Shown here: one piece after another, positions 16,507 to 20,948 of the stretch
Layout: each line of letters opens with the position of its first letter
Position numbering within the stretch: the stretch's first letter is position 1
Assembly (NCBI GenBank): GCA_030688365.1
Contig: JAUYIE010000012.1
Coordinates: 1 to 44,477, forward strand
DNA: 44,477 nt
Direction of reading: 5' to 3'
From: a bacterium
GTDB lineage: Bacteria; Patescibacteriota; Patescibacteriia; JACQRZ01
Made by a program: the position numbers and the translations under genes
The notes under the pieces: generated by a model
What the model saw: the letters and a program-made list of their open reading frames with translations, nothing else
What the model was told of the DNA's origin: nothing
Databases searched by the model: none

Positions 16507-17343
16507 AACTATTTTGAGGAAACTTGAAATAGTATCTCGCAATTTTTTGTTTTTTAGAGCAAGTTCTTACTCTTTATAAGAGTTTGATCCTGGCTCAGGA
16601 TGAACGCTGGCGGCGTGTCTAAGGCATGCAAGTCGAACGAACCGATTTGAGTAGCAATACTTGATGAGGTGAGTGGCAGACGGGAGCGTAACACATTGGT
16701 AACCTACCCCGGAGTTTGGCATAACCCGCCGAAAGGCGAGCTAATTCCAAATACGTTTCGCGATCATATGGTTGTGAAAGAAAGGAGCAATCCACTCTTG
16801 GAGGGGCCTATGGCTCATCAGCTTGTTGGTAAGGTAAAAGCTTACCAAGGCTACGACGAGTAGCGGGTGTGGGAGCACGACCCGCCTCACAGGGACTGAG
16901 ACACTGCCCTGACTCCTACGGGAGGCTGCAGTCAAGAATATTCCCCAATGGGCGAAAGCCTGAGGGAGCGACGCCGCGTGCAGGACGAAGTCCTTCGGGA
17001 TGTAAACTGCTTTTGTGTAGGAATACTTACGAAGGTACTACACGAATAAGTGCCTGCTAAACTCGTGCCAGCAGCAGCGGTAATACGAGTGGCACAAGCG
17101 TTATCCGGTTTTACTGGGCGTAAAGGGTCCGCAGGTGGTTTTATAAGTTTGGTGTTAAATCCTGGTGCTCAACATCAGGGCCGCATCGAAAACTATAAGA
17201 CTAGAGGCTGGGAGAGGCATACGGAATTGCTGGTGTAGGGGTCAAATCCGTTAATATCAGCAAGAACACCAAAGGCGAAGGCAGTATGCTAGAACAGTCC
17301 TGACACTCAGGGACGAAAGCGTGGGGAGCGAATGGGATTAGAT

Positions 17344-18373
17344 AAATCCCAACCGTGGTTTGTGAAAACAAACGAGCGGTGAATGGTGTCCTTTTTGATG
17401 GCGACATCAAAATGAGCATTCAGCTATATCGGTGAAAACCCAAGAGATAAAGGTACTACTGCCTTTCTTGGAAAACCCCGAGGGAAGTTTTTCTTTTATG
17501 GAAAACCCCGTAGAGACTATGAAGATGGTCAACAGAGATAGAAGGTGCTAATCACTATGTTTATGAAACAAAATGATTTCGTGCCTTTGTCGGATCAAGT
17601 TCAGTCGATCATATTAGGATCGTTATTAGGAGATGGATCACTTACTTTCAATAAAGGGTATGCAAATGCGCGATTTACATTTCGCCATTCGCAAGTCCAA
17701 GAAGAATATTTTCAATGGAAAGCAATTCAATTGAAGGAAATTTCTTCGGATCGTGATGTTTTTTTGCAAAACCCTGATGGGTATTCAAAAAATAATAAGT
17801 TACGATATCAAAGTAAAGCGCTCCCCTCATTAACATTCCTTTATAAGGAAACTTATAAGCATAATCGACTTCGTATCAGAAGGAAATGGCTCAATACCAT
17901 GACTCCATTATCACTTGCGATTTGGTGGTGCGACGATGGGTCGCTCATATCAAATTCAAGAAAAGGAGTATTTTGTACTGACGGATTTGATAAAGAATCA
18001 GTACAACTTTTGTCGCAATATTTCAAAGTGGTGTGGAAAGTGGAGACACATTGTGCACCGATTGGAAGAAAACGCGATGGGAAGAAAGAAGAATACTGGA
18101 GGCTTTGGATTCGTTCTACTGACGAACTCAAAAAATTTCTTACTATTATTCTGCCTTATATACCTGTAGCATCAATGCTACAAAAAGCCCTTCTGCTCTA
18201 TAACGATCAACATCTTCAGCAACGCTGGATCTCTGAAGTAGTTACCCTTACTCATTTTTCAGAAGAAGTTGTACAACAACAACTAGAAGAAAAGCGAACT
18301 AAGTGGAAACGTTTCAGAGAATGATATAGTCCAATCTGTGTGGTAACATACAGTCCATAATATATGGAACATG
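17344..18373 (+). mobile_element. Group I intron 1 in 16S (near E. coli position 793/794), carrying a homing-endonuclease gene
   Basis: The 5' exon ends in U and the insertion ends in G. GNRA hairpin GTTTGT-GAAA-ACAAAC. Core-like motifs CTATATCGGTGAA, CCGAGGGAAGTTT, GGAAAACCCCGTAGAGACTA and GATATAGTCC are shared with intron 3 and partly with the tRNA-Phe intron. Confidence 0.7.
17557..18324 (+). CDS. Double-motif LAGLIDADG homing endonuclease (intron 1 ORF)
   Basis: Motifs ILGSLLGDGSL and IWWCDDGSLI. ATG 17557 is preceded by GAAGG. The ORF is open from GTG 17545. Confidence 0.85.
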   Translation: MFMKQNDFVPLSDQVQSIILGSLLGDGSLTFNKGYANARFTFRHSQVQEEYFQWKAIQLKEISSDRDVFLQNPDGYSKNNKLRYQSKALPSLTFLYKETYKHNRLRIRRKWLNTMTPLSLAIWWCDDGSLISNSRKGVFCTDGFDKESVQLLSQYFKVVWKVETHCAPIGRKRDGKKEEYWRLWIRSTDELKKFLTIILPYIPVASMLQKALLLYNDQHLQQRWISEVVTLTHFSEEVVQQQLEEKRTKWKRFRE

Positions 18374-18973
18374 ACCCCAGTAGTCCACGCCCTAAACGAT
18401 GGATGCTAGGCATTGGAGGTGTCGACCCCTTCAGTGCCGTATACCCAAGCTAACGCGTTAAGCATCCCGCCTGGGAAGTACGGCCGCAAGGCTAAAACTT
18501 AAAGGAATTGACGGGAACCCGCACAAGCGGTGGAGCATGTGGTTTAATTCGACGATAAGCGAGGAACCTTACCAGGGTTTGACATCCCGCGAATTTTTGA
18601 GAAATCAGAAAGTGCCCGCAAGGGAGCGTGGTGACAGGTGCTGCATGGTTGTCGTCAGCTCGTGTCGTGAGATGTTGAGTTAAGTCTTTTAACGAGCGCA
18701 ACCCTCATCTCGTGTTACTTTTCACGAGAAACTGCCTCGGATAACGAGGAGGAAGGTGAGGATGACGTCAAATCAGCATGGCCCTTACGCCCTGGGCCAC
18801 ACACGTGCTACAATGGCCGATACAATGGGTCGCCAAGTCGCAAGACGGAGCTAATCCCACCAAAGTCGGCCTCAGTTCGGATTGGAGGCTGCAACTCGCC
18901 TCCATGAAGCTGGAATCGCTAGTAACCGCGCATCAGCCATGGTGCGGTGAATACGTTCTCGGGTTTTGTACAC

Positions 18974-19897
18974 GGAGCGCTTGGTAGCATGCGCATCCAG
19001 TATGTGAAAGTCATACCAGAGAGATAGAGACTCTCTGAAGCGAAATTACAGTAGTGTTCTGTGAAGGCCACTATGGAGAGTAAGAGTAGTAGTAACCAGC
19101 TTGAGTATTTGTTTGAAGCATTCTTTGGTGACGATCCCCTGTGTACAGGGAGAAGTTATCTCTAACCTTATATTGAAGAATGTATAGAATACCTAAGATG
19201 GATACAAACGGATAGTATGTGACCCAAGGAGATCTTGTTTACTCCTGTTTCTCGTGGTATATTACCACCGAGAAAAGGTATATGAATTGGTAACAATCAT
19301 AAAAGGTATGCAAGAAGTCAGCAGATCCCATAGTACTTCAACAGAGGTTGAAGGAAGGGGTGAACCTAGCAATAAAAAAGCACTCTCGCCGTGGTATGTA
19401 GTAGGTTTTACTGACGGGGAAGGAAGTTTTTCAGTGAGTATCACTCATCATCGTACACTCAAAACACGAGTCGAGATTAGTCCCGACTTTTCAATTGAGT
19501 TGCGAAAAGATGATGAAGAAATACTGACACGAATTCAATCCCTTCTCGGCGTAGGAAAAATCTATTATGTACGTTTTAGGAATGAAGCGTGGCAAGACCA
19601 TGCAAAACTAAAAGTGAGAAGTGTGAAAGAGCTGCACGAAGTAGTGATCCCGTTCTTTCGTACCTATCCCCTTCAAGCAAAGAAGGCAAAAGTGTTTGAA
19701 ATCTTTGCAACGATAGTGGAAATGATGGTGCGCAAAGAACATCTTACTTATGGTGGGATACAAAAGATCAAAAAACTTCGAGAGCAGATGCAGATATTTG
19801 GAAAAAAATATCGCAACTAGGAACCGCCAGGATACGGGAAAACCGTTCGTCCGGTGGTGTGGGAGATACACAGTGGAAACACGTCTATAATCCCGAT
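18974..19897 (+). mobile_element. Insertion 2 in 16S (near E. coli 1397/1398), class unresolved, carrying a homing-endonuclease gene
   Basis: Splits TTGTACAC / ACCGCCCGTCAC with no positional ambiguity. The flanking exon base is C and the last inserted base is T. The motifs shared by introns 1 and 3 are absent. Confidence 0.6.
19308..19820 (+). CDS. Single-motif LAGLIDADG homing endonuclease (insertion 2 ORF)
   Basis: WYVVGFTDGEGSFSVS motif and a size of about 170 aa, typical of homodimeric family members. ATG 19308 is preceded by AAAAGG. The ORF is open from 19254. Confidence 0.8.
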   Translation: MQEVSRSHSTSTEVEGRGEPSNKKALSPWYVVGFTDGEGSFSVSITHHRTLKTRVEISPDFSIELRKDDEEILTRIQSLLGVGKIYYVRFRNEAWQDHAKLKVRSVKELHEVVIPFFRTYPLQAKKAKVFEIFATIVEMMVRKEHLTYGGIQKIKKLREQMQIFGKKYRN

Positions 19898-19984
19898 ACC
19901 GCCCGTCACGCCAAGAGAGTCGGTAACACCTGAAGAGGCTCGTTCGAGTACCTAGGGTGGGATCGATGATAGGGGCGAAGTCGT

Positions 19985-20813
19985 GAGTGCACTCTGCACA
20001 TTGTTGCGACCTTTCGAAGTAATTCGAAATGAGAAATCTGACTATATCGGTGAATCCCCTTTAATGTTATAGTTAAAGGACAATACCGAGGGAAGTTTTC
20101 TAAAGAGAGGTATTATGGCAAATACCAAAGTATTTCATCAGATGAGAGTAGACATCATTCTGAATGCGACCCAACGAGAAATCGTTGTTGGTACGGTGCT
20201 AGGTGATGGATCTCTTATTGAGACGTTTTCTAAGAAGAATTTACGTCTTCAGATTGAGCAGTGCGATGCGCAAAAATCGTATGTGTTCTGGAAATATGAA
20301 ATGCTGGAATCTCTGATTTGTACTCCTCCACGATATCAAGAGAAAAAGAAATCGTGGCGAGTGCGAACTATTAGTCACCCAGATATTACTGAAATAGGTT
20401 TCCATTTTTACAATGGAAGAAAGAAAGTGATACCAAACGATTTTGAACTGTTCCTAACACCACTGGCACTCGCTGTATGGTTTATGGATGATGGTTCAAG
20501 AGATCAAGTACGCGGAACGTATATATTGAATACTCAATGCTTTACAAAAGCAGAAGTAGAAAGAATACGGATCGCGTTACAAATAAAGTTTGGTCTATCC
20601 CCTATCTCAATACACAAAGATAAATCTGGTTGGCGCTTGTATATTCAGAAACCGTCAAGTAAACGTTTTGAGACAATTGTTTCACCGTTTATACTGCCGG
20701 TGATGGAATACAAAATAGGAAAACCCCGTAGAGACTACACGTCGGCTCCTGCAAAGCCATTCGCAGGATGAAGATATAGTCCGTGCCTCGTGGTAACATG
20801 AGGGTAATACATG
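19985..20813 (+). mobile_element. Group I intron 3 in 16S (near E. coli 1498/1499), carrying a homing-endonuclease gene
   Basis: The 5' exon ends in U and the intron ends in G. P1 pairs exon GUCGU with intron GCGAC (20006..20010), with a U-G wobble at the splice site. P2-like hairpin TTTCGAA-GTAA-TTCGAAA. Core motifs GGAAAACCCCGTAGAGACTA and AAGATATAGTCC. Confidence 0.8.
20115..20771 (+). CDS. Double-motif LAGLIDADG homing endonuclease (intron 3 ORF), paralogous to the intron 1 ORF
   Basis: Motifs VVGTVLGDGSL and VWFMDDGSR. RBS GAGAGG. The 3' end reads through the GTAGAGACTA core motif. Confidence 0.85.
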   Translation: MANTKVFHQMRVDIILNATQREIVVGTVLGDGSLIETFSKKNLRLQIEQCDAQKSYVFWKYEMLESLICTPPRYQEKKKSWRVRTISHPDITEIGFHFYNGRKKVIPNDFELFLTPLALAVWFMDDGSRDQVRGTYILNTQCFTKAEVERIRIALQIKFGLSPISIHKDKSGWRLYIQKPSSKRFETIVSPFILPVMEYKIGKPRRDYTSAPAKPFAG

Positions 20814-20948
20814 AACAAGGCACCCGTAGCGGAAGCTGTGGGTGGATCACCTCCTTTCTAGGGAGATAAAAAAATGTTTCCTCTCACGAGGAAAACAATT
20901 CTAAGGTCGAGGTTTTATGAAAGCAATTTCAAAGACTGTGTTCGCGAG

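Follow-up and report, generated by a model that had tools for sequence, protein, structure and literature searches.

In a survey of 380 16S ribosomal RNA (rRNA) genes from bacteria of the candidate phyla radiation (CPR, or Patescibacteria), Tsurumaki et al. (2024; PMC11270868) found insertions of ≥100 bp in 48% of the genes, with up to 16 insertions and up to 5,627 bp of inserted sequence per gene. Group I introns clustered at several sites, including 16IS5 and 16IS10 (position 1498), and group-II-like insertions occurred solely at "1400" (16IS9), where 39 of 53 carried a LAGLIDADG gene and none a reverse transcriptase. LAGLIDADG_1 dominated at 1400, and LAGLIDADG_2 and LAGLIDADG_3 dominated at 16IS5 and 16IS10. 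Here, we describe a 16S rRNA gene with three large insertions, each carrying its own LAGLIDADG gene, in contig JAUYIE010000012.1 of a CPR bacterium. The whole 44,477-nucleotide (nt) stretch that was analysed is referred to as the window.

The 16S introns of giant sulfur bacteria have been characterised experimentally (Salman 2012, as cited in PMC11270868); going by that description, they are group I introns, several per gene, as in the window, in a host of a different phylum. More recently, Liu et al. (2026; PMC13190283) described rns-1396, a IIC intron with a single-motif LAGLIDADG gene that was found only in Thiotrichaceae. All of its members have a 5' linker and none has exon-binding site 2 (EBS2).

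The same introns at the same three sites as in the window have already been described in CPR bacteria. The window shares with 16IS5, 16IS9 and 16IS10 (Brown et al. 2015; Tsurumaki et al. 2024) the host group, the insertion regions (about 790–800, "1400" and 1498), group I introns at the two outer sites with group II confined to "1400", LAGLIDADG_2 at 16IS5/16IS10 and LAGLIDADG_1 at 16IS9, open reading frames (ORFs) of ~180 and 210 amino acids (aa), and the lack of a reverse transcriptase. The second intron matches the group-II-like profile of 16IS9 in every respect (CPR host, ~1400, Rfam group II match, LAGLIDADG_1, no reverse transcriptase). There is no essential difference from the published sites; the 2024 study classed introns by Rfam matches only, and what is added here are the helices, the pairing between the exon- and intron-binding sites (EBS1–IBS1), and the positions of the ORFs within the ribozymes. 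We consider it highly probable that the three insertions are mobile ribozyme introns at known hot spots (Tsurumaki 2024; Salman 2012; Liu 2026) of a CPR 16S gene, with splicing and homing proposed from their cores, exon pairings and ORFs. The gene leaves current understanding unchanged and adds one well-resolved example. An earlier reading of the window, made from the sequence alone (the sequence-only reading), had called a gene with three introns and three endonucleases an extreme case. This does not hold, given the maximum of 16 insertions per CPR 16S gene (PMC11270868); moreover, among 19 complete related 16S genes, eight had at least three insertions, one had five, and one spanned 4,608 bp.

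Organization of the 16S rRNA Gene

Exon boundaries were set by MAFFT alignment of the joined exons with the annotated Escherichia coli rrs gene (L001:408-1949; L numbers denote the sequences used for comparison). The gene occupies 16572-20859 on the forward strand, a span of 4288 bp, and consists of four exons (1505 nt in total) and three insertions:

16572..17343, forward strand: 16S exon 1, E. coli positions 1-793 (Rfam SSU_rRNA_bacteria, 1224.8 bits, and rrs alignment).
17344..18373, forward strand: intron 1, group I, 1030 nt, inserted after E. coli U793, inside the 806R block.
18374..18973, forward strand: 16S exon 2, positions 794-1397; its final six bases (18968-18973, GUACAC) are the IBS1 of intron 2.
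18974..19897, forward strand: intron 2, group II (IIC-like), 924 nt, inserted after C1397, inside the 1392-1406 block.
19898..19984, forward strand: 16S exon 3, positions 1398-1498 (rrs alignment).
19985..20813, forward strand: intron 3, group I, 829 nt, inserted after U1498, inside the 1492R block.
20814..20859, forward strand: 16S exon 4, position 1499 to the 3' end, including the anti-Shine-Dalgarno sequence CACCUCCU (rrs alignment).

When joined, the exons regain the canonical 16S sequence at all three junctions (GGGATTAGAT/ACCCCAGTAGTCC, TTGTACAC/ACCGCCCGTCAC and GAAGTCGT/AACAAGG) in the alignment with E. coli rrs. The G+C content is 38–42% in the introns versus 52.7% in the exons. The Rfam SSU match begins at 16572 and, at gathering thresholds, ends artificially at 18987, because the model is unable to bridge the later insertions. 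The rrs alignment confirmed to the base the lengths given in the sequence-only reading (a 4288-bp gene, about 1505 nt of exon, and insertions of 1030, 924 and 829 bp) and placed the insertions in the 806R, 1392-1406 and 1492R blocks, as it had stated. Together with Pfam, the alignment also supports its view of three insertions that need to be removed, each with a LAGLIDADG gene. The substitution that it noted at the 515F site is present in the exon sequence as the variant GTGCCAGCAGCAGCGG in the Rfam SSU alignment.

Genes of this kind explain the absence of many CPR bacteria from 16S surveys: here, the primer sites 515F, 806R, 1392R and 1492R are either mutated or interrupted, and an amplicon would be 4.3 kb long. 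They also lead gene callers to annotate "proteins" inside rRNA genes.

Group I Cores of Introns 1 and 3

Relatives were collected by a search with the ORF of intron 2 (ORF2), taking one genome per species. This yielded ~40 CPR 16S genes, many of which also had insertions at 793 and 1498 (denoted S793 and S1498). The S1498 insertions form one family. In all members, the guide ends in GCGAC, the P2 hairpin has a GNRA loop, the intron ends in CAUG, and the strings CCGAGGGAA, CCGUAGAGACU and GAUGAAGAUAUAGUCC are present (paired regions are denoted P and joining segments J). The GCGAC guide of intron 3 is kept in 12 relatives. Nine S1498 members from outside the window were aligned with their ORFs and optional hairpins trimmed (alignment A2). 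In the P2–P9 structure of the family, 92.7% of the cells were paired, compared to 72.5% for shuffles and 33–46% for slid partners, and compensatory changes were present in 35 of the 54 pairs, a number equalled by none of 500 shuffles.

A covariance model built from A2, and therefore containing no window sequence (R1), matched both halves of both cores. In intron 3, the match to the 3' half (20616-20813, 65.8 bits, E 4e-17) ended exactly at the terminal G20813, and the 5' half was matched at 19993-20159 (37.8 bits, E 3e-9). The corresponding matches in intron 1 were to the 5' half at 17393-17528 (37.8 bits, E 3e-9) and to the 3' part at 18323-18353 (17.2 bits, E 0.002). Judged by these matches and the covariation of the S1498 family, insertions 1 and 3 are group I introns, as the sequence-only reading had concluded. 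Their core spans P3–P9 and includes the P4–P6 and P3–P8 domains and the P3/P7 pseudoknot, with an uncertain P3 partner and P8 in intron 1. Both have the U before the 5' splice site and the G as final base (G18373 and G20813) on which that reading had relied, and all four of its core-like strings common to introns 1 and 3 were found in both. We take GUAGAGACUA (J6/7-P7) and GAUAUAGUCC (J8/7-P7) to be common to the window introns and the IC3 introns of Azoarcus and cyanobacteria. In contrast to these IC3 introns, which sit in the tRNA-Ile gene of Azoarcus and the tRNA-Leu gene of cyanobacteria, those of the 16S gene hold ORFs in P6 or P8. The following elements were assigned in intron 3 (all on the forward strand):

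19980-19984 (GUCGU, exon) with 20006-20010 (GCGAC, guide), forward strand: P1, with a G.U pair at the splice site.
20001-20005 (UUGUU) with 20814-20818 (AACAA, exon), forward strand: P10.
20012-20018 with 20023-20029, forward strand: P2.
20038-20042 with 20741-20745, forward strand: P3.
20047-20052 with 20084-20089, forward strand: P4.
20058-20064 with 20073-20079, forward strand: P5.
20090-20100 with 20718-20727, forward strand: P6.
20731-20737 with 20777-20782, forward strand: P7.
20748-20752 with 20763-20767, forward strand: P8.
20786-20791 with 20798-20803, forward strand: P9; the terminal G is 20813.

Additional hairpins separate P7 from P3 in some S1498 relatives. Homologues of intron 1 were present at site 793 in L018, L011, L016 and L144, and share P2, P4, P5, P6 and P9 with it, with compensatory changes; RNAalifold analysis of the S793 cores was hampered by the poor alignment of L011. 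The elements of intron 1 are:

17385-17390, forward strand: internal guide GGUGUC, kept in all five S793 members.
17393-17400 with 17405-17412, forward strand: P2.
17420-17427, forward strand: 5' strand of P3, with an ambiguous partner at 17524-17528 or 17537-17544.
17429-17434 with 17476-17481, forward strand: P4.
17440-17453 with 17462-17471, forward strand: P5.
17482-17491 with 17502-17509, forward strand: P6.
17513-17519 with 18327-18332, forward strand: P7.
17564-17569 with 18311-18316, forward strand: P8 candidate, 6 bp, inside coding sequence.
18336-18341 with 18348-18353, forward strand: P9; the terminal G is 18373.

RNA duplex searches of intron 1 gave no convincing P8 besides this 6-bp candidate. 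The site-793 introns of L144 and the window end in G, unlike those of L018 and L011, which have no G next to the exon and end in GUAACAA(C/A)AAUCA directly before ACCCCAG. Either these two introns have an unusual terminal base, or their 3' splice site is 12 nt further 5', in which case the rRNA would retain 12 additional nt in the 790 loop. In L016, the P6 stem of the site-793 intron holds a nested insertion of ~230 nt that itself contains a small ORF.

The Group II Intron at Position 1397

Insertion 2, which the sequence-only reading had left unclassified, is the least ordinary of the three. By its domain structure and exon pairing, it is a group II intron of a IIC-like type. The ribozyme without the ORF is ~411 nt long, with the 5' end GGAGCGC and the 3' end AU. 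The Rfam model RF01998 (group-II-D1D4-1), which covers J2/3 and domain III (DIII; other domains are abbreviated likewise), matched 19279-19360 with 50.8 bits and thus passed its gathering score of 35. The elements assigned in the intron are:

19141-19146, forward strand: EBS1 loop GUGUAC, pairing with IBS1 GUACAC at 18968-18973 over 6 bp.
19314-19353, forward strand: J2/3 and DIII (fold).
19823-19858, forward strand: DV, with the CGC triad and a 2-nt (UC) bulge.
19861-19894, forward strand: DVI, with unpaired A19889/A19890 in the predicted fold.

DV was 99.4% paired, with compensatory changes in 9 of its 14 pairs among 12 distinct sequences. The two A residues predicted to be unpaired in DVI lie 8–9 nt from the 3' end. 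In all 25 C1397-type relatives compared, the EBS1 loop perfectly complements the final six bases of its own exon: the IBS1/EBS1 versions are GUACUC/GAGUAC (n = 21), GCACAC/GUGUGC (n = 2), GCACUC/GAGUGC (n = 1), and GUACAC/GUGUAC in the window. This covariation places the 5' splice site after C1397 and demonstrates selection for exon binding; it thereby pins the splice site without RNA data.

Most C1397-type relatives (L003-L051) read GUACUC at 16S positions 1392-1397, and thus have U1396 with the matching EBS1 GAGUAC. Position 1396 is A in E. coli 16S, in the window, and in the sampled non-CPR genes. We considered the possibility that the exon TTGTACTC of most relatives reflected a boundary error, which was ruled out by the existence of intron-less copies: TTGTACTCACCGCCCGTCA occurs without an intron in >120 metagenome contigs (L082 onwards), and U1396 is thus a natural variant of the decoding-centre block. 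A long 5' linker preceding the internal AUGCGC of intron 2 was likewise ruled out, by the alignment of relatives and by the pairing of EBS1 with the six bases immediately 5' of GGAGC.

Like rns-1396, known from Thiomargarita and further Thiotrichaceae (Salman et al. 2012; Liu 2026), intron 2 is of group II, interrupts the same block of the 16S gene, encodes a single-motif LAGLIDADG enzyme and no reverse transcriptase, and has a ribozyme of ~410 nt with the CGC triad in DV. However, by the EBS1–IBS1 pairing, the window intron is inserted one base further 3', after C1397, a shift to which the numbering convention may contribute. It also lacks the A-rich 5' linker, since GGAGCGC aligns with the start of domain I; its EBS1–IBS1 pairing is 6 bp; and its ORF starts in J2/3 and crosses DIII. 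A1396-type CPR relatives (e.g., L031-L036) have the insertion after A1396, with an A-rich linker; among the relatives, the linker was confined to this type. The intron 2 type, defined by insertion after C1397, absence of the 5' linker, a 6-bp EBS1, and an ORF start in J2/3–DIII, may represent a group II–LAGLIDADG lineage distinct from the published rns-1396 IIC family, in which the exon-binding loop would have co-evolved with the decoding-centre variants GUACAC, GUACUC, GCACAC and GCACUC. We put this forward tentatively, with the balance of our judgement tilting slightly to the other side. If true, the lineage would be a natural system for how a ribozyme tracks its rRNA target. Group II introns that carry a LAGLIDADG gene, such as this one, form a rare class of retroelement ribozymes that have switched to DNA-based homing.

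LAGLIDADG Genes and Their Placement

The three introns contain one LAGLIDADG ORF each:

17545-18324 (frame), forward strand: ORF1, LAGLIDADG_2, I-SceI-type double-motif, likely start ATG 17557 or 17563 (Pfam E 5.8e-35).
19254-19820 (frame; ORF 19308..19820), forward strand: ORF2, LAGLIDADG_1, single-motif, 170 aa (Pfam E 1.9e-21).
20115..20771, forward strand: ORF3, LAGLIDADG_2, I-SceI-type double-motif, 218 aa (Pfam E 4.1e-41).

All three are intact, score above the Pfam cut-offs, and have their catalytic acidic residues (GDG/DDG in ORF1 and ORF3, DGEG in ORF2). The motifs of ORF1 are LLGDGSL and WWCDDGS, and those of ORF3 are VLGDGSL and WFMDDGS. ORF3 matches I-SceI (PDB 1r7m) over its full length (E ~6e-20), at low identity and with a different rRNA sequence as the target of I-SceI; the term "double-motif" is therefore correct, although Pfam counts one domain. 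ORF1 and ORF3, both of the monomeric I-SceI type, share 28% identity and are distant paralogues, consistent with the paralogous double-motif ORFs of the sequence-only reading.

That reading had also placed the two ORFs at different positions relative to the core, which the helices bear out. ORF1 lies in P8 of intron 1, between P7/P3' and J8/7, with its start preceded by AAGGUG at 17542 and its stop codon in J8/7. ORF3 sits in the P6 loop of intron 3; its frame continues across P6', P7, P3' and P8 and closes with a stop codon in J8/7. Three ORF states occur within the S1498 ribozyme family, namely no ORF (L030, L038), an ORF3-like gene in P6, and an unrelated gene in P8 (L028, L075) that has no similarity to ORF3 by BLAST. 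The ORFs of L005 and L029 belong to the same protein clade as those of L028/L075. These states agree with the two distant clades of 1498-site proteins reported in PMC11270868. ORF1 falls in a clade specific for site 793, together with the ORFs of L018, L011 and L016, which forms a third clade next to the 1498-site ones. Thus, it is plausible that the ORFs of introns 1 and 3 were acquired or moved independently, as had been suggested.

The probable Shine-Dalgarno sequence of ORF1, GAAGGUG (17537-17547), overlaps the candidate P3 3' strand of intron 1 that is supported by the family, and the 5' strand of the P8 candidate overlaps the start codon at 17563. Folding of intron 1 and translation of ORF1 may therefore exclude each other.

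ORF2, with the motif GFTDGEGSF, matches each half of I-OnuI-family enzymes as well as the homodimeric 5gkk and I-Vdi141I (3e54), at low identity and with differing targets for the two homodimers. Its product presumably acts as a homodimer. There are 329 homologues, of which the named ones are from Patescibacteria. The frame of ORF2 opens in J2/3, inside the ribozyme core, and extends across DIII into DIV, so that its first ~15 codons (19308-19353) derive from the conserved J2/3–DIII sequence (AGAAGUCAGCAGA..CAUAGUA). The N-terminus (consensus MQEVSRxHST) is accordingly conserved because of constraints on the RNA. The AAGG just upstream of the AUG of ORF2 is poorly spaced, and an in-frame UUG at 19287 is better spaced.

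Proposed Splicing and Homing

In the mechanism we propose, a 4.3-kb precursor would be transcribed and the three ribozymes would excise themselves. In introns 1 and 3, an external guanosine would attack after the U of the G.U pair in P1; the terminal G would then take its site in P7 and the exons would be joined, guided by P10. In intron 2, the EBS1 loop would hold the final six bases of the exon, and an unpaired A in DVI, or water, would attack the 5' splice site, with DV as the catalytic centre. Ligation would yield a normal 16S rRNA of 1505 nt, with the expected junctions ...GGGAUUAGAU/ACCCCAGUAG..., ...UUGUACAC/ACCGCCCGUC... and ...GAAGUCGU/AACAAGGCAC.... Each endonuclease would cut the intron-less version of its own site, and repair would copy the intron in. 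Such homing would account for the way in which intron and ORF families recur at fixed rRNA positions across distant CPR lineages. Consistent with this scheme, transcripts of CPR rRNA genes lack the insertions (Brown et al. 2015, summarised in PMC11270868), and one LAGLIDADG enzyme from a CPR rRNA intron cuts its own insertion site and dimerises (PMC11270868).

A number of points weigh against this interpretation. Splicing, exon ligation and endonuclease activity are all functions that we infer from sequence. At gathering thresholds, Rfam called no group I intron inside the 16S gene, and at E-value thresholds it gave partial, sub-threshold group I matches only: Intron_gpI (RF00028) scored 29.3 bits on intron 3 and 29.1 bits on intron 1, against a gathering score of 50. 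In intron 2, the DV–DVI model RF00029 was also sub-threshold (19822-19897, 29.3 bits against 40), DV has an extra bulged A on the 5' strand, and the 5' end is GGAGC (GGGUG, GGGUC or GGAUG in relatives) rather than GUGYG. Finally, intron 1 has short P1 (3 bp, GAU/GUC) and P10 (3 bp) helices, its P3 partner is ambiguous, and its P8 is just the 6-bp candidate in the coding sequence. The shortfall with Intron_gpI is explained by the ORFs inside the P6 and P8 loops, which break the model alignment, rather than by a missing core; an ORF-less S1498 relative of 240 nt (L030:5669-5907) exceeds the cut-off, with 57.4 bits over the full model. The Rfam group I check suggested alongside the sequence-only reading thus failed at the gathering score for both introns, while their cores were detected by the R1 model.

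The weak helices of intron 1 bear most directly on the possibility that the ribozymes no longer splice by themselves, and that removal, mainly of intron 1, depends on proteins, for instance host factors or the LAGLIDADG protein encoded by the intron, which would serve as a maturase. Some introns elsewhere are known to have LAGLIDADG maturases, e.g., I-AniI. PMC11270868 also raises such a role, and the overlap of the P3 partner candidate at 17537-17544 with the Shine-Dalgarno sequence of ORF1 points in the same direction as the short P1 and P10 and the P8 within coding sequence. However, the guide GGUGUC is kept in the five S793 members, and the other helices of intron 1 are intact and covary. 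We therefore regard protein dependence as unlikely, although it is the alternative that deserves most attention.

Fragmentation without ligation, in which the insertions would be intervening sequences cut out by RNase III to leave a broken but functional 16S rRNA, has precedents among bacterial 23S genes, probably including those of CPR bacteria (PMC11270868). It is very improbable here, since all three insertions have complete ribozyme cores under purifying and compensatory selection and pairings that hold the exons (P1/P10 or EBS1–IBS1), and since they interrupt single-stranded functional centres, in which breakage would do harm. We give equally little credence to the idea that this is a dead rRNA copy colonised by selfish elements, with a clean copy elsewhere feeding the ribosome. 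The window shows only 44 kb of the genome, which leaves room for a second copy; however, the exons score 1224.8 bits against the SSU model with the conserved blocks at the junctions intact, CPR genomes usually have a single rRNA copy (PMC11270868), and dozens of independent genomes show this arrangement too. An assembly chimera of intron-bearing fragments from different organisms can practically be dismissed, even for a metagenomic contig with an rRNA region prone to mis-assembly, because the exon–intron pairings fit their own exons (EBS1/IBS1 GUGUAC/GUACAC here versus GAGUAC/GUACUC in most relatives) and the flanking protein genes are contiguous and of CPR type. Self-splicing mobile introns thus remain the preferred interpretation for all three insertions.

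A Split tRNA-Phe Gene

A fourth intron is located 1 kb downstream of the 16S gene, just downstream of tRNA-Ile, in a tRNA-Phe gene:

21888-22211, minus strand: split tRNA-Phe(GAA), with exon 1 at 22211-22180, the intron at 22179-21928, and exon 2 at 21927-21888.

The intron is an ORF-less group I intron of 252 nt, inserted between U33 and G34 (Rfam, 69.3 bits). It holds both GUAGAGACUA and GAUAUAGUCC and is matched by R1 with 44.8 bits. ARAGORN missed the unspliced gene and recognised the spliced sequence as tRNA-Phe. A literature search for group I introns in CPR tRNA genes found no paper on the subject; a 2020 preprint reports many split tRNA genes in "unnamed phyla".

Host and Surrounding Genes

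The genes flanking the 16S gene are ordinary bacterial ones, including trmD, smc, polA, a Mur ligase and rhamnose-pathway genes. Among named taxa, PolA has its best matches in Candidatus Uhrbacteria, Kerfeldbacteria, Buchananbacteria and "Patescibacteria group", at identities of only 50–55%. On these protein matches, the host is a CPR/Patescibacteria bacterium with no close sequenced relative.

The tRNA-Ile and split tRNA-Phe genes follow the 16S gene on the opposite strand. Between the 16S gene and the split tRNA-Phe gene are two small cysteine-rich ORFs with CxxC pairs on the minus strand (21023-21490 and ~21620-21770); the former, of 155 aa, had no Pfam match. The 16S and 23S genes are unlinked, lying on the same strand 21.7 kb apart (16572-20859 and 42587-44477) with protein genes between them. 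The known intron hot spots of 23S fall past the end of the window, and the visible portion of the gene (model positions 1-1787) has small insertions only, e.g., one of ~64 nt near 42870-42940.

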